Numbered from the stretch's first letter, positions 3,001-9,000 are shown. The stretch is 14,325 nucleotides of DNA from Deferribacterales bacterium (GCA_050253335.1 JBFWJG010000053.1:1-14325), one strand, 5' to 3'. Made by a program: the numbers.

Positions 3001-6000
3001 TTATCGACTATACCCACAGCATAAGCGCCTCCGGCAGCATTGACGGCTTCAGCCCCACCCCTGTTTATGAGTTCAACCGTCTGGGCGAGGCTGTTTCCGC
3101 AATGAACAGGGAACTGCGTGAAACACAGGCATATCTGGGCAATTTTCTGAGTTTCGCTAAAGTTCCGCTTATCGCGTGGGACACGGAAAACAGGATAGTT
3201 ATTTTCAACAAATCCATGGAAGAGCTCTCAGGAATTGAGGAGGCGCAGGCGGTCGGCCATAATCTCGAGATTATATTCTCATGCCTCACCGGAGACAGGC
3301 TCAAGGAGCTTCTGCTGAAGGCGGCCGGAAACGCGGACACCCTTTCCAACTTTGAATCCATGGTGAAGAATGTCAAAACAGGCGAAATGAAATATATCCT
3401 CTGGAATCTCTCCATGGCGGGAACAGGCGAAAAAAGCTTCGGGGTTGTTCTTCAGGGGATTGACATCACTGACAGGAAATCCTCGGAGGAGAAGCTTCTG
3501 CTTGCTTCCAAGGTTTTTGAAAATACCATAGAAGCCATTTATATAACCAACACAAGAGGGATTATCCTGAGTGTCAACAAGGCCTTCCTCCGGATTACAG
3601 GCTTCAGCGAGGAAGAGGCCATAGGCAATAAAACCAGCATTCTCCGTTCCGGCAGGCACGCAAATCACTTTTACAAGGGTCTGTGGAATTCCCTGAAGGA
3701 AACAGGCACATGGCAGGGTGAGATATGGAACAGGCGCAAAAACGGAGAGCTTTATCCGGCGCTTCTGAATATATCCAGCATAAGAGACTCAAACGGAAAT
3801 ATCTCCCATTTCATAGGCGTGATGCACGACATAACCGAAAGGAAAAAATACGAGGAACAGATCAAGTATCAGTCCCATTATGATCCGCTAACGAATCTGC
3901 CTAACCGCTATCTCTTTCAGGACAGGCTGAGCATGGCTATTTCCAGAGCGCGGAAAAACCATAATTATGTCGGGCTGATCTCCATCGATATAGACAGATT
4001 CAAAAACGTCAACGACACACTGGGGCATAATGTCGGGGATATACTGCTTCAGAAAATAGCCGACAGGATAGTGGGCACAGTGGGTGACAGCATCACGGTG
4101 AGCAGGCTTGGCGGGGATGAGTACACAGTCATAATTGAAGACCTTTCTGACAAGAACAGGGCAGTGACGGTGGCGTACAATGTCATTAAACAGCTTGAGA
4201 AGCCTTTTCAGGTGGATGATTACGAGCTTTTCCTTAAATGCAGCGCAGGGCTGAGCTTTTATCCGGATGACGGAGAAGATGTTTTCACCGTGGCCAAAAA
4301 CGCCGATGCCGCAATGTACCGTGCGAAGGCGAAGGGGCGCGGAATGCTCCAGATTTACACCACAGACTTTAACGACACCGCAAAAGACAGGCTCATTGTA
4401 GAAACCAAGCTTAACCGCGCGCTGGATAACGGCGAGTTTGAAGTTTACTATCAGCCTAAGATAAATCTCAAAACCCTTCAGATGACCGGGATGGAGGCGC
4501 TGATCCGCTGGAACAACCCCGATCTCGGCAGGGTTTTCCCTGATATGTTCATTCCCATCGCGGAGGAAACAGGGCTCATTGTTCCCATCGGTCACTGGGT
4601 TTTAAAGAGATCCTGCGAGGATCTCATGAGATGGCGCTCCAAGGGCTACGACCTCAAGGTGGCGGTGAACCTTTCCCTCAAGCAGTTTATCCAGAAGGAT
4701 CTCTACATGTCCGTGCGGAACGTTCTGCAGGAAACCGGAGTGAATCCTGAGCACCTTGAACTTGAGATTACCGAAAGCACAATCATGGTGGATACTGAAA
4801 ATACCCGGGATATTCTGGATAAGCTCAGCTCACTGGGAATATCTTTCGCTATCGATGACTTCGGCACAGGGTTCAGTTCCATTGGTTATCTGACAAGAAT
4901 ACCCATAGATACCATAAAGATAGACAAAACTTTCACTCAAGGGATAGACAGCAGTGAGGACTCGCTTTCCATAGTTCGCTCGGTTATTCAGCTTTCCAGA
5001 AACCTGAACATCGAGGTTGTTGCCGAAGGGGTGGAGAATGAGGTTCATCTTAGACTGCTCCGTGAGATGGAGTGTGATCTGGCGCAGGGTTATTATTTCA
5101 GCAGGCCTGTTCCGGCGGGAGAGTTCGAAAAGCTTCTTGAAGGCTGGAGTGAAAACTTTTCCCTTGAGATCAACAGCTTAAAAAAGGCTTAGAGCTTTGA
5201 TGGGCCGGCCATGCCGAACCCTTGAGTGGTTCTGATGCCTATGCCTGATTCCACAAGAAGGGAAAGATCCTCCGGATGACCGCTGAGCTGAAATGTTCCT
5301 GTTATTCCGGTGAGCATCATGAGAGATTTTCCCGTTTTTTCCCTGAATTTGTCCAGTGTGTGCTTGATTACGGTCTTGCGCAGCTTAACAGGCCTGAACA
5401 CTATGGGCTCCAGCGGGTATTTTCCCGTCATGCCGAAAATGCGCATGGAGGAGATTTCCGCAAGCCTGTCCGAGTATTCCTTTTCGGAAACCTCCAGTTC
5501 ACAGTATCCGTCCTCCACGGGGGGGATGATAGGCTTCTTCGAGTTCTGAGCTTCAAGAAGGACAGGCGAGTGCGTATGAAGGGTGACTTCCGGAGCTTCA
5601 ATGGCAAAAGGCCTGTTGAGAAGCTTTGAGTTCTCAAGCATATAAGTAAGCTTTTTGCCTCCCACCAGAATCTGCCCGTTTCGGGAAAAATCTATATCCT
5701 TCTTTCTCTCAAACCCTTCCTGCACTGCAAGAAGAAATTTCTCATACGGACTTGAAATGTATAATGTGACAAACTTGTTCTCGGGGATATAAAAAACAGT
5801 ATCGTGAACTTCAAAGCTGTTGTCGAAGACGATGGCTTCTTTCCTGAATTTGTCTCTGGAGAAGGCGAGATTGAACGTGAAGAATTTGAAGCTTTTATCA
5901 GTAAGCCCCATATTCAGTGATTCATAGCCGCTTTCAGCGGCTGATTTGATGATTTCGGCTATTCTGTTTCTGAAAATGACCGGTACTTCTGTTGCGGTAA

Positions 6001-9000
6001 GAGTAAGTTTCAAAAGCATCGTGGAAGTCTCCTGTCAAAAGAAAATTCACATTTAAGTATGTATCCTCTTTGATATTAACATAAAGATAATGAAAGAACA
6101 ATCTCAACAAAGTCTTATATAACAAATAATATTGACTGAATTAATGAAATGGCAATATAAAAAATGAATACACGTGAAAAAAGACAGCGGGAAAATGATT
6201 ATTAGATTCATGAATGTGCTTTCTTATAAATATGATAATGCTTATTGACATTATTTAGGCAAGTTAGCCTGTTAATCAAGACCGCCCCAACCGCCTGTCA
6301 GCGTACCTTAACATATGTACACGCTGCGTTTGTCATCAGTCTTTTATAAATTATGAATTGTGAAAATTTATGACTGCAGGTTTTGTGAATAAATATATCC
6401 CTAAGAATGTTTCAGCATTTTTTCAAAATCTTCGCAGGAAGGTGTCCTGAGCCGGATTCTGTAAAAATATAAAATTGCTGTTAAACAAATTTAAGCGGCA
6501 GGTTTACGCCGGACTTATTTGGTGATATAAAGAAAGAATGGATGAAGCACTTACAATATCTACACAAAACAGACTGAGTAAAGAATATGTAGCTTCTTTG
6601 GAAGCAGTCAGATTTGACGGAGAAATCATTACTGTTACGGAACCTGAACATGCCGAAGAGGTTTGCAGGGAGCTCAGCGGAACCGGCGAACTGGGTTTTG
6701 ATACGGAAAGCAGGCCTTCCTTCAGGAGAGGGGAAAGCTACCCTGTTTCCCTTGTTCAGCTTTCAACCCTTGAGAAGGCTTATCTTTTTCAGCTTAACGG
6801 CGGAAGTCTGCCCGAAGGTCTGGTTAGGATTTTCTCGGATTCTTCAATAAAAAAAATCGGCGTAGGCATAAGGGACGATATAAAAAAGCTGAAAGAGCTT
6901 GCCCCTTTTGAAGAAAAGGGATTTATCGACCTTGGCGATATAGCTGCCGAAAAAGGGATAATCCAGTTCGGCGCCCGTGCTCTGGCTGCCAGATATCTTG
7001 GGCGTAAAATTGTCAAATCCGCGCAGAAAACTAACTGGGCCCGCAGAGACCTCACTGAAAAGCAGAAAAATTATGCCGCGACGGACGCGTGGGTCTGCCT
7101 GACGATTTACCCTCTTCTGCTGAATGATCCCAACGACTACAGGGAATGTCCGGCGGAGGCTCCGGAAGAGGCAGATGGATAACCCATTTGTTTTCACGAA
7201 AGAGATTGAGATTCAGGGTTATGACATTGATTACGGCGGTGTTGTGAGCAATATTGTCTACATCCGCTGGATGGACGACCTGCGGAGCGCACTGCTGAAG
7301 GCTCATTATCCTGTTGATGTGATGGCAAAGGACGGCATTGCCCCTGTGGTAAATAAAACCCATGCCCATTATAAACGCTCCTCATTTTTCGGTGACAGGC
7401 TGACAGCGGAAATCCGTATGACAGCCCTCGAAAAAGTGCGCTGGGAAATACAGGCGGTTATAACAAACGGAGACGGCAAAACTGTCTTCACTGCTGTTCA
7501 GTCCGGTGCGTTTGTTGACCTGAGGAACGGAAGGCTCGCACCTGTTCCGCCTGTGCTGGCTAAGCTTTGGGCTGCCTGTCAGGCGGAGAAACTGTAAATA
7601 TCCGTAACCGACCAGCTTATATTTCCGTTTTTATCCATGCGCATACTTACGCTTTTTTCTTCCGTGTTATCAAACAGGCTCGCATATTTCATAACTGCCG
7701 CGACCTGATTTACCGCATACTCCTCACTGAACTTCATGTGCCTGTCAAATGCGTCTATAATTGCGCGGTTGCCTGAAATTCCCCTGAAAAGGTTTTCTAG
7801 TTCCTGATTATCCCGAAACATTTGTTCTATCTCAGCTTTCTGCGGATGATCCCCTTTCACGTACACGTGTCCGTCCGTGCCTGTGGTCAGCTCAAATGAC
7901 GGGTCGGAAGAGATGCCCCTCTCCTCCATTATTGCCTTCATGCTGTCGGAGAAAATGTTTTCAAGTTTTGCTGTACGTTCCTGAATACTCTCACTTGAGG
8001 AAGATGGCAAGGTATAGGGCTCGCCCAGTTCGCCGTGCCTGCCGTTTTTCGGCTGTTCAGCCTGCAGGCTATTAATGATGTCGATAAATTCCTGTTCGGC
8101 CTTGCTTTTGTCTGTTTTTTGGGTTGCGTTAGGGGACTGAACCCCGCTGAGGTTGGTTTGGGAAATATCACTGATCATTTTTTCCTTTCCTTGCGCCGAA
8201 AGAAAATATTTTAATACTTATAGCAAAAAACATGCTGAGTAAGGGGAAAATAAAGCAAAGGGGGCTTGAAGCCCCCTTTCTGAGTTTAAGTTATCTCATT
8301 CCTTTGATCATGAGCTCTGCTGTTTTCCCTGCAAAAAGCGAAGGATTCTCCGGGGCGGAGCCTTCCACAATCAGCGCAAGGTTGAAGAGGATGTCCGCAT
8401 AATCTTTTATCAAGGAAGACTTTGCATCTGTCTCGTGGAGTTTTTTCATTTCAGCGAAAAGTGCGTGCTCGGGGTTTATTTCCAGAATCTTCTTGGATTT
8501 CGGGATAAACTGCCCCATGGCCTCCATCATGCGCGCCATGTGCGGATCAATGTCGTTGTCATCGCCTACAAGGCAGCAGACGGTGTTTTTCAGCCTTCCG
8601 GAGAGGCGCACATCCTTAACCTTTTCCTTGAGAGCGTCCTTTATGCTGTCAAGCAGTCCGCCCAGCTCTTTTTTCTGTTCCTCGGCTTTCTCTTTGTCAT
8701 CAAGGCTTATGTCCCCTTTGACCACGGAGCGGAGCTTTTTGCCCTTATACTCGCCAAGGGAGGGGATGACTATCTCGTCCACCTCATCGGTCATGAAGAG
8801 GACTTCAATGCCTTTTTCGGTGAATGATTCAAGATAGGGGGATTTTTTCAGTTCGGCTATATTTCCCCCCGTGATGTAGTAGATCTCTTCCTGATCCGGC
8901 TTCATTTCGGCGAGATAAGTCTCAAGGTCGGTGAATTTGCCTTCCTCGGTTCTGCTTGAGCGGAACATGAGCAGGGATGCTATCTCCTCTTTTCTGGTGA

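Follow-up and report, generated by a model that had tools for sequence, protein, structure and literature searches.

A solitary Cas6 conserved outside CRISPR-cas loci in Geovibrio and Limisalsivibrio, a candidate RNA-binding protein of the host

Background

Why should a bacterium keep a cas6 gene, long and faithfully, in a place where there is no CRISPR-Cas system for it to serve? The question is raised by a 14.3-kb contig of a Deferribacterales bacterium (C53; GCA_050253335.1, JBFWJG010000053.1:1-14325), the entire length of which is our window and which carries neither another cas gene nor a CRISPR array. A preliminary description of this locus proposed that the protein has been domesticated for a task independent of CRISPR, namely binding or cutting the hairpin of some 150 intercistronic repeats dispersed in the same genome. 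We examine here both parts of this proposal.

Results

The open reading frame at 5189..6019 (minus strand; 276 amino acids plus stop) encodes a Cas6, by profile, glycine-rich loop and fold alike. Its product is recognised by PF01881 (E 6.8e-16, 59.7 bits for a cut-off of 23) and by TIGR01877 (69.2 bits, cut-off 58.65), and its best PADLOC profile is Cas6b (2.6e-31, 107 bits); the scores on which the assignment had originally been made are reproduced, with a trivial difference in the Pfam E-value only. The AF2 model (pLDDT 92.9, pTM 0.90) shows the two tandem ferredoxin/RRM domains of the Cas6 fold, Foldseek matches it to Cas6 structures with E-values of 8e-15 to 3e-10, and the VIA Z scores over residues 1-276 range from 22.7 to 24.5, with 24.5 for 3ufc, 24.4 for 3qjj_B (the P. 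horikoshii homolog) and 23.1 for 3i4h (PfCas6). The C-terminal glycine-rich loop of Cas6 proteins has the form GhGxxxxxGhG; here it reads GIGIRTTQGFG (residues 259-269), and G259, G261, R263, Q266, G267, F268 and G269 are invariant in the 34 sequences aligned. The protein also carries a K219-H220-T221 motif and, at 168-178, an 11-residue insert that differs from canonical relatives.

The solitude of this gene is not a peculiarity of one contig. Its companions on C53 are genes for a periplasmic binding protein, a LuxQ-like PAS-GGDEF-EAL protein, a 3'-5' exonuclease, a 4HBT protein, HtpG, a beta-lactamase-fold protein and proteases. The PAS-GGDEF-EAL gene (2058..5192, plus strand) lies tail-to-tail with cas6 in a 4-nt overlap of the 3' ends, a junction in which nothing resembling a terminator was detected; this order is common to all Geovibrio copies, a CheB/CheR-PAS gene being inserted in Limisalsivibrio. 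On the other side, the divergent exonuclease gene (PF01612; 6538..7182, plus strand) is a syntenic neighbour and not a specific partner, present in 36 of the 63 genomes of the order as against 6 for Cas6. These six genomes, the number already reported, are the four of Geovibrio (89-92% identity between the window protein and the three others), Limisalsivibrio (G025), which has two copies (49% and 37%), and G001, whose single copy (35%) heads a type I-B operon. Synteny is seen in G022, G023, G024 and G025 and in the contigs L020 and L127, and no cas gene lies within about 9 kb of the orphan in G022-G025, so that the same solitary gene does occupy the same neighbourhood in the other Geovibrio genomes and in Limisalsivibrio, as first described.

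No cognate CRISPR system for the orphan exists in its five carriers, and the resident type I-C, I-F and I-Fv systems do not need it. The genome of the window (G000) has type I-C genes on contig C92, with Cas5c as processing enzyme; the locus is broken at the contig end, cas1 and the array are missing from the assembly of 142 contigs, and a k-mer spacing scan of all of these finds no array. Both observations agree with the preliminary description, which is to be amended regarding G022: no cas1 had been found there, and this genome in fact carries a type I-Fv locus composed of Cas7fv, two Cas6f genes, Cas3, a truncated Cas1f and a 41-repeat array. A type I-F locus with an array is present in each of G023, G024 and G025, an assignment based on profile checks of Csy4 and the other proteins in G024, and on matching ORF sizes and Cas1 and Csy3 matches in G023 and G025. 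G024 is complete, and type I-F with its own Csy4 is the only system detected in it; the four other carriers are drafts, where an array might have gone unassembled. RAMPs (PF03787) and DevR (PF01905), as effectors of type III and I-B systems, were each found in none of the five genomes. A search of these genomes for the I-B-type repeat gave a best PWM score of 15.9 (null maximum 20.2, self scores 38-48) and, by CM, a best match that is partial, with an E-value of 0.019. Members of the Cas6 family cut CRISPR repeat RNA with an 8-nt 5' handle as the product, and no cognate repeat was found in the genome of the window. With no cas operon, array or effector genes, the orphan does not belong to a functional type I-B or III expression module.

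In a Cas6 tree obtained by quick search and rooted at midpoint, the Geovibrio sequences and the two from Limisalsivibrio (G025a and G025b) form one clade (SH-aLRT 100) on a long stem (0.89), which branches from within the Cas6 genes that stand first in type I-B operons. The orphans are monophyletic and constitute one old clade, which amounts to only 2 clusters among 1.84 billion representatives. Thirty-five rows of the tree stand in loci with at least two cas families downstream; these are cas7-cas5-cas3-cas4-cas1-cas2 sets (cas8b was recognised in only 6 ORFs), and 10 of the 35 carry 29-nt repeat arrays. Other solitary genes stand in the tree beside operon-borne relatives (L040, L080 and L038): L040 is a WYL-HIRAN-cas6 arrangement devoid of effector genes, and L080 is a long branch with no Pfam match at 1e-4.

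Purifying selection on the orphan is as strong as on htpG, the dN/dS values being 0.026-0.039 for cas6 (at dS above 1.2, hence saturated) and 0.028-0.055 for htpG, and none of the seven order-level matches has a broken reading frame. Conservation extends upstream: an AT-rich non-coding block of 235 nt (6020..6254, minus strand), which we take as 5' UTR plus promoter or regulatory region, has a mean pairwise identity of 0.83 among the four Geovibrio genomes, compared with 0.41 in the middle of the gap and 0.54 at third codon positions of cas6 in the same set. The last 116 nt of the block show no RNA structure signal (z 0.02), and no Rfam family was found in it. It contains a sigma-70-like promoter candidate, TTGCCA-18-TATTAT (6126..6155, minus strand; about 106 nt upstream of the ATG), which is a 10/12 match to consensus only. 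In four of four runs the coding sequence is covered by RNA-library contigs from a close relative (identity to the window mostly 95-99%), which extend to 6100 and 6106, none of the listed pieces going further; these data being contigs only, which show no RNA ends, all from one study, and RNA libraries being liable to contain DNA, this coverage is a weak sign of expression.

Candidate acid/base residues, in helix alpha1 and the loop that follows, were judged by alignment to distant solved enzymes. In 7/7 proteins of the Geovibrio clade, position 18 is N, while 20 of 25 canonical proteins have there the H of a 'YRHR' motif, and the same 7/7 have T40 or N40 instead of the Tyr found in the 'LY' motif of canonical proteins, where the alignment places the catalytic His of P. 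furiosus Cas6. The earlier statement that a conserved His is Asn in the orphans thus holds for the Geovibrio clade and not for Limisalsivibrio, both copies of which retain His18 and carry either a His or a Tyr at the second site. K25, K45, K219, H220 and R263 are invariant in the alignment. In strand beta1', where the orphans have 'LHTHSP' and their canonical relatives 'FKTNSP', H150 is present in 9/9 orphans and H148 in 8/9, instead of N and K. The account of Cas6 enzymes in PMC3479195 describes a Tyr/His/Lys triad in PfCas6, the use of H38/H40, near the Pf His, by MmCas6b, and active sites that vary widely among subfamilies and can be redundant; a non-catalytic homolog in P. horikoshii is mentioned in PMC3902920. 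Because the His and Tyr of canonical relatives are lost, the Geovibrio proteins may bind RNA without cutting it. H148/H150 could nevertheless rebuild a catalytic site, and cleavage may persist in the clade taken as a whole, because the Limisalsivibrio paralogs retain His18 and His/Tyr.

The dispersed repeats are abundant in 4/4 Geovibrio genomes (at least 80 matches each), and their core pattern has 247 matches in G024 and 0 in Limisalsivibrio. With the model used here, Limisalsivibrio, in spite of its two orphan genes, has no match at E<=1e-3; two marginal ones (E 0.08 and 0.39) both fall in coding sequence. Conversely, and in line with a caveat raised at the outset, genus g2, which has no Cas6, harbours genuine copies (8 matches in G019, the best at E 1.7e-12, and 5 in G021). 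Protein and repeat are therefore found together only in Geovibrio and not, as had been claimed, in two related genera, and a coincidence confined to one genus counts as one evolutionary event. The repeats themselves resemble RNA elements: compensatory changes are seen in 5 pairs of the inner hairpin, and G-U pairs occur in the outer stem on just one of the strands. Most copies are located at the ends of genes and follow the direction of transcription (38 versus 13 in co-directional gaps, 30 convergent versus 8 divergent, tandem copies not being independent), and no RAYT-type transposase that might explain them was found in the five genomes.

Discussion

We think that the presence of a domesticated, CRISPR-independent Cas6, long kept under selection in Geovibrio and Limisalsivibrio, is well supported, because the carriers have processing enzymes of their own (Cas5c for I-C, Cas6f for I-F and I-Fv) and neither I-B/III effectors nor an I-B-type repeat. 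To the complete explanation that we favour, a vertically inherited, I-B-derived RNA-binding regulator or chaperone with little or no cleavage, we would give an even chance. According to this explanation, the ancestor would have been a Cas6 heading a type I-B operon; operon and array would have been lost in the ancestor that Geovibrio and Limisalsivibrio share, and after one burst of fast change, corresponding to the long stem branch, the gene would have been passed on vertically, alone in the chromosome and preceded by a conserved promoter region of its own. The parts that grip RNA (tandem RRM fold, G-rich loop, KHT motif, basic K25 and K45) are kept, from which we infer specific RNA binding. 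The protein probably binds some other cellular RNA; tight binding with little or no cleavage would be the most likely mode in the Geovibrio clade, and the role that of a regulator or chaperone of one or few host transcripts, not of a bulk processing enzyme. No pointer to a target RNA was found in the window or in the five genomes. Put more boldly, and with the chances for and against about equal, a Cas6 lineage would have abandoned CRISPR permanently and served its hosts, over the lifetime of at least two genera, as an independent RNA-binding protein under tight regulation, with one duplication and with the ancestral cleavage residues gone in Geovibrio; in the boldest form, it would cap or protect the roughly 250-copy Geovibrio hairpin repeats, not cutting them.

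The proposal that the protein binds or cuts these repeats, thereby splitting polycistronic mRNAs into hairpin-capped ends, seems improbable to us. It can appeal to the joint presence in 4/4 Geovibrio, to the RNA-like features and gene-end position of the copies and to the lack of RAYT-type transposases. However, Limisalsivibrio has two orphan genes and no credible repeat, g2 the repeat and no Cas6, the cas6 contig itself is free of copies, and the nearest canonical substrates are AT-rich 29-nt repeats, not a GC-rich hairpin; moreover, the loss of two candidate acid/base residues in Geovibrio fits poorly with cutting at about 250 sites per genome. Beyond co-presence in Geovibrio there is no positive evidence, and the repeats are not supported as the target. 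What stands of the original reading is the CRISPR-independent Cas6, by virtue of its clade, selection, promoter region and the self-sufficient CRISPR systems around it. An endoribonuclease still active through a rebuilt site (H148/H150 with K25 and K45, for example), cutting one or few host RNAs outside CRISPR, would be a more serious contender, although we find it unlikely: the conserved new histidines, the residues retained in Limisalsivibrio, the diversity and occasional redundancy of Cas6 active sites described in PMC3479195 and the very strong constraint along the full length of the protein would all suit an enzyme, but both residues aligned with the functional region in enzymes of solved structure are missing from the Geovibrio clade.

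Could the orphan be an ordinary crRNA-processing Cas6 that acts in trans for an array or effector elsewhere, possibly unassembled? Many type III loci are served in this way (such supply is presented as common in PMC12669027), and G000, with its 142 contigs and its truncated I-C locus short of cas1 and array, leaves room for one. We nevertheless regard this as quite improbable: complete G024 shows type I-F alone with its own Csy4, neither RAMPs nor DevR nor the I-B-type repeat appear in the five genomes, and the resident systems vary whereas the orphan is fixed in one neighbourhood. That the gene is a functionless relic, in decay since its type I-B locus was lost, is close to refuted. Such relics exist (L040, L080 and L038), but this gene combines a very low dN/dS, be it at saturated dS, with an intact frame in 7/7 matches, conservation across two genera, a duplication, a conserved upstream region and coverage by RNA-library contigs. 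The domesticated Cas6 is the reading that we retain.

If it is true, this would be the first case of a lone Cas6 recruited to control host RNA, and a natural counterpart of engineered Csy4/Cas6 RNA tools. In these insulators and RNA-tethering tools, one Cas6 and one hairpin act on ordinary mRNAs; they are man-made and rely on the cognate CRISPR repeat, whereas no natural hairpin partner could be linked to the orphan. Cas proteins retained outside CRISPR-cas loci for other roles are described in PMC5704561 and PMC8730458, and solo-Cas4, the cas1-solo of casposons, the Streptomyces I-E derivative with a STAND NTPase and HRAMP are likewise cases of this kind. As far as these accounts go, the latter two are multi-gene effector modules, unlike a lone cas6, and none of the four is a single lone Cas6.

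Among CRISPR-borne proteins, the orphan shares its profile family and 33-41% identity over full length with the Cas6 (Cas6b-type) heading type I-B operons (cas6-cas8b-cas7-cas5-cas3-cas4-cas1-cas2), for instance in Hydrogenothermaceae, Thermodesulfovibrio and Deferribacterales G001. Common to both are the G-rich loop, a KHTLxxFREKTGK motif, K25 and K45; the orphan differs by its long stem, H18N and Tyr to Thr/Asn (in Geovibrio), the new H148/H150 and the 168-178 insert, and it has no operon, array or 29-nt repeat anywhere in the genome. Its best structural matches are PH0350 of P. horikoshii (3qjj) and a Cas6-related protein of P. furiosus (3ufc), with VIA Z of 24.4 and 24.5 and an rmsd of 2.2-2.3 over 224-225 residues at only 19-21% identity. 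These archaeal proteins bind CRISPR repeat RNA and come from genomes rich in CRISPR arrays, whereas the orphan has no cognate repeat. The P. horikoshii Cas6 is described in PMC3902920 as binding RNA and non-catalytic, and its PDB entry bears the title 'One RAMP protein binding different RNA substrates'.

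A genuine Cas6 gene in a fixed neighbourhood

The gene at 5189-6019 (minus strand, 276 residues) is a genuine cas6. Its product matches Pfam Cas_Cas6_C (E 6.8e-16), scores 69.2 bits with NCBIfam TIGR01877 (cut-off 58.65) and is spanned over its full length by the PADLOC Cas6b model (2.6e-31); the G-rich C-terminal loop GIGIRTTQGFG (259-269) shows no variation across the family alignment. An AlphaFold2 model made with 34 homologs as input (pLDDT 92.9, pTM 0.90) was compared, over residues 1-276, with solved Cas6 structures, giving VIA Z-scores of 24.5 (3ufc), 24.4 (3qjj_B) and 23.1 (PfCas6, 3i4h), with an rmsd of 2.2-2.4 over 217-225 residues; their Foldseek E-values range from 8e-15 to 3e-10. 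A single-protein phmmer search of the PDB sequences returned chance matches only, the relation being seen with the family profile instead.

The preliminary description was right to call the gene solitary, as contig C53, which at 14,325 nt makes up the whole window, carries no other cas gene. Its neighbours there encode a periplasmic binding protein, a LuxQ-like PAS-GGDEF-EAL protein, a 3'-5' exonuclease, a 4HBT protein, an unassigned ORF, HtpG, a beta-lactamase-fold protein and two proteases; the PAS-GGDEF-EAL gene lies tail-to-tail with cas6, and the exonuclease gene is divergent from it. The convergent 3' ends of cas6 and the PAS-GGDEF-EAL gene share 4 nt (5189-5192) with no terminator-like site between them, and in the other Geovibrio genomes their spacing stays at 6 nt or less; given such overlapped ends, the two transcripts may overlap in antisense.

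A protein search found cas6 in 6 of the 63 genomes of the order, namely the four of Geovibrio (100, 92, 91 and 89% identity), the Limisalsivibrio genome G025 (two copies, 49 and 37%) and G001 (35%). The order htpG - x - 4HBT - exonuclease - cas6 - PAS-GGDEF-EAL - binding protein recurs in the other Geovibrio genomes (G022, G023, G024), as had been claimed, and also on L020 and L127, two other contigs whose cas6 are both 89% identical. The claim holds for Limisalsivibrio too, although in G025 insertions have loosened the block. The second cas6 of G025 is flanked by genes for a chemoreceptor and for an MgtC/DUF4010 protein, and no cas gene was seen within some 9 kb of either copy. The sole locus returned by a metagenome scan for P0003-P0007, intermediate orphans of 68-83% identity, was an 89% copy.

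Some details of these neighbourhoods may be recorded here. Contig L020 (JAVEZE010000207.1, 4287 nt), binned as 'Spirochaetia bacterium', has htpG-x-4HBT-exonuclease-cas6-EAL at 89% protein identity and is probably a mis-binned Geovibrio contig. The ORF between 4HBT and htpG (7579-8178, minus strand, 199 aa) matches nothing in Pfam; the corresponding spot in G022, G023, L020 and L127 holds an ORF of 209-215 aa, as does the place beside htpG in G025, and G024 has no ORF of at least 80 aa between 4HBT and htpG. On the downstream side of the second Limisalsivibrio cas6, at a distance of 6.4 kb and past several unrelated genes, is a LigT-type 2',5' RNA ligase / cyclic phosphodiesterase gene (L010:16784-17326), probably by coincidence. 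The exonuclease gene has the same distribution as cas6 within the family (5 of 16) and was considered as a possible partner in function. With 36 of the order's 63 genomes carrying it, most of them without Cas6, it is not a specific partner.

Probable origin from type I-B operons

Only eight of 5.8 billion clustered proteins, the query included, reach at least 49% identity, and the next best are at 41% or less. A profile of the orphan clade (the Geovibrio clade plus both Limisalsivibrio Cas6), run against 1.84 billion representatives, found only two clusters of the clade, one of them the second Limisalsivibrio copy, with scores dropping from 407 to 223 bits beyond these two.

A scan of one genome per species gave 75 loci, and a quick maximum likelihood tree (IQ-TREE, SH-aLRT support, ORFs below 230 aa excluded) has 70 rows. 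Half of these (35) are loci with at least two cas families, mostly downstream of cas6, as judged by local profiles seeded from the G001 operon, which recovered cas7, cas5, cas3, cas4, cas1 and cas2, and cas8b in no more than 6 ORFs. For another 24 rows the contig is too short for its context to be judged. Arrays of a 29-nt repeat that is 91% conserved from locus to locus accompany 10 of the operon-type loci. In G001 itself cas6 heads a full type I-B operon, in the order WYL, HIRAN, cas6, an unassigned large ORF in the cas8b position, cas7, an unassigned ORF in the cas5 position, cas3, an IS-split cas4, cas1 and cas2. All the Geovibrio proteins and both Limisalsivibrio copies form one clade (support 100, stem of 0.89 changes per column), which is nested among operon-borne type I-B Cas6 and has an Aquificota group as its nearest relative (support 90).

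The other solitary genes in the tree, L038, L040 and L080, are single tips beside operon-borne relatives, as expected of recent relics. L038:10001-10801, from an Aquificales MAG (37% identity), sits on a short branch; no cas gene was seen among the ORFs scanned about 6 kb either side, and the flanking genes are an FAD oxidase and a metallo-beta-lactamase-fold gene, then a GGDEF gene. L040 is a WYL-HIRAN-cas6 remnant, and L080 a long branch without Pfam match. In several canonical type I-B loci cas6 is immediately preceded by the gene of a WYL-WCX regulator, that of a small HIRAN-domain protein, or both (such genes are at L011:7916-9348, L035:4361-4747 and L040:8568-10004), and they are still beside cas6 in the remnant L040.

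Resident CRISPR systems of the carriers

The cas genes of the source genome are indeed, as reported before, type I-C genes on contig C92 (974-6788: cas3-cas5c-cas8c-cas7/csd2-cas4), in an operon that breaks off where the contig stops; the draft assembly contains no cas1, cas2 or array. The complete genome G024 has a type I-F system with Cas1, Cas2-3 and Csy1-4 (Csy4 E 4.8e-57) and an array showing, in the 20 kb examined, 85 copies of a repeat word at a 60-nt period. G023 and G025 have ORF sizes and a gene order as in G024, matches to Cas1 and Csy3, and arrays of the same period. No cas1 had been found before in G022, yet this genome has a type I-Fv locus (G022:C12:18500-26600, equal to L136:6500-14600) with Cas7fv, two Cas6f, Cas3 and a truncated Cas1f, together with an array of 41 repeats. 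The tandem Cas6f genes there encode 165 and 183 aa, and beyond the Cas1f fragment, of 179 aa, come a VapC toxin gene and some of the repeats.

Since crRNA is processed by Cas5c in type I-C and by Cas6f in type I-F, the solitary Cas6 is needed in none of the five carrier genomes. Type III RAMPs (PF03787) and DevR (PF01905), to which the Cas7 in the operons of the canonical relatives belongs, were likewise found in none of the five, in searches whose controls were positive in 5 and 2, respectively, of 14 known genomes. A PWM built from 10 canonical 29-nt type I-B repeats scored at best 15.9 in the source genome, against a maximum of 20.2 in the reversed genome and self scores of 38-48, and a sequence-only covariance model of it gave no more than partial matches in the five carriers (best E 0.019); we reject a relic or ectopic repeat of this type. 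A hidden array in the draft was rejected too, as the k-mer spacing scan returned only tandem runs of the dispersed repeat (see below) and, where two contigs end, a periodic stretch. This stretch (C62:10436-10956 and C107:1-330), with units of about 15 nt, breaks the assembly at both ends and is array-like in the spacing scan; we read it as putative repetitive coding sequence.

Constraint and expression

Pairwise dN/dS of cas6 among the four Geovibrio genomes is 0.026-0.039 (dS being at least 1.2 in the five pairs that give a value), compared with 0.028-0.055 for htpG and 0.038-0.081 for the exonuclease gene. Over the 235 nt that precede the start codon (6020-6254) the four genomes share 83% identity, in contrast to 41% in mid-gap and 54% at third codon positions of cas6; this block contains a candidate sigma-70-like site (TTGCCA-18-TATTAT) about 106 nt from the ATG. 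We read it as probable DNA-level regulation. A structured RNA in this region was considered and rejected (the last 116 nt give a fold z-score of 0.02), and Rfam has no family within the window.

Metatranscriptome contigs of a close relative, mostly 95-99% like the window, cover the cas6 coding region in all four runs of one study and reach 6100 and 6106; none of the pieces listed falls within 6107-6545, and several bins of the window are uncovered, holes that are no proof of anything. Such cover is a weak sign of expression, as contigs show no ends and DNA may occur in RNA libraries.

The active site

In the alignment of the family profile with PfCas6 (3pkm; E-value 1.2e-8), K25 is matched with the Tyr of 'LIY', K45 with the Lys of 'GPKLF', and the canonical 'LY' Tyr with the His of 'YLHEV'; we take these PfCas6 residues to be the catalytic ones. 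According to PMC3479195, PfCas6 has a Tyr/His/Lys triad, and M. maripaludis Cas6b uses H38/H40, close to the Pf His.

K25 (34 of 34), K45, K219-H220 and R263 are kept throughout the family. All seven proteins of the Geovibrio clade have Asn for the His of 'YRHR', which is His in 20 of 25 canonical relatives (Cas6 heading type I-B operons), and Thr or Asn for the Tyr of 'LY'; in the Limisalsivibrio copies His18 is retained and the second position is His or Tyr. The orphans also have His150 (9 of 9; Asn in 18 of 25 canonical relatives) and His148 (8 of 9; Lys in 23 of 25), and all nine share an 11-residue insert at 168-178. Taken together, the kept basic residues, the changed His and Tyr and the new His suggest that the orphan Cas6 has probably kept RNA binding, and that Geovibrio has probably either lost cleavage or rebuilt it. 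Among the best structural matches to the Geovibrio protein is a Cas6 homolog of P. horikoshii that PMC3902920 reports as non-catalytic.

The dispersed hairpin repeats

The preliminary description proposed that Cas6 acts on the hairpin repeats dispersed in the source genome, of which nhmmer finds 160 copies on 54 of the 142 contigs and none on C53. The unit is about 70 nt long; its inner hairpin has compensatory changes in 5 pairs and is flanked by invariant blocks, whose pairing has G-U pairs on one strand only. Copies lie chiefly at gene ends in the sense of transcription (38 vs 13 in co-directional gaps, 30 in convergent vs 8 in divergent gaps), counts that exclude 39 copies within predicted ORFs and 32 at contig edges and in which tandem copies are non-independent.

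A covariance model gives at least 80 matches in each of the four Geovibrio genomes, 6-8 in G019 and 4-5 in G021, both of genus g2, where Cas6 is found in none of four genomes; the G019 match is a genuine intergenic copy, and the g2 copies are diverged. In G025 the model finds no repeat at E<=1e-3, its marginal matches (E 0.08 and 0.39) both lying within coding sequence. A strict core pattern matches 247 times in G024 and never in G025, G019, G018 or G026. Limisalsivibrio thus has Cas6 without the repeat, and G019 and G021 the repeat without Cas6, so that the two coincide in Geovibrio only, and the proposed link is unsupported.

Examples of the repeat are seen in the source genome at C43:12148-12487, C41:5291-5628 and C50:8740-8990, and in many places in G024:C1. 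They often form tandem runs of 95-200-nt period, which are not CRISPR-like arrays since the intervening sequence is duplicated too. A RAYT transposase was rejected as their maker (PF01797 in none of five genomes).

Function and significance

We think it well supported that this cas6 is of type I-B descent and has become a domesticated, solitary and regulated gene, strongly constrained, confined to one small lineage and independent of the resident CRISPR. The idea of domestication for a CRISPR-independent job is thus upheld, by the single clade, the low dN/dS, the conserved upstream block and the resident I-C, I-F and I-Fv systems that do not need the gene. A functionless relic is scarcely credible at this level of constraint. 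Processing of crRNA in trans could be imagined for the draft genome, whose array is unassembled; with Cas5c or Cas6f at hand in the carriers, we consider it very improbable. Nearly as improbable is processing of the dispersed repeats, which has their abundance in Geovibrio in its favour and, against it, the occurrence of each partner alone in a neighbouring genus.

We put at about an even chance that it is a CRISPR-independent RNA-binding protein which, in Geovibrio, binds rather than cuts. The main rival, an active nuclease with a rebuilt site, could make use of the new His residues; with both the 'YRHR' His and the 'LY' Tyr replaced in Geovibrio, we regard it as unlikely.

Cas6 is regarded as an enzyme dedicated to CRISPR; profile pipelines, according to PMC12669027, score Cas6 matches outside cas islands as false positives. 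The literature searched, which included PMC8616872, PMC8730458 and PMC12669027, with subscription journals outside its scope, yielded no account of a Cas6 domesticated as a solitary gene. If a Cas6 indeed stands alone under housekeeping-level constraint, a CRISPR RNA-recognition module would be recruitable to ordinary host RNA biology. It would offer a natural, compact scaffold for sequence-specific RNA binding with a new specificity, and a clean system for seeing how Cas6 takes on another client and how its active site is lost or rebuilt; were the dispersed repeats its target, a large repeat family of unknown origin would be explained. Geovibrio has cultured members, and one of its genomes (G024) is complete.
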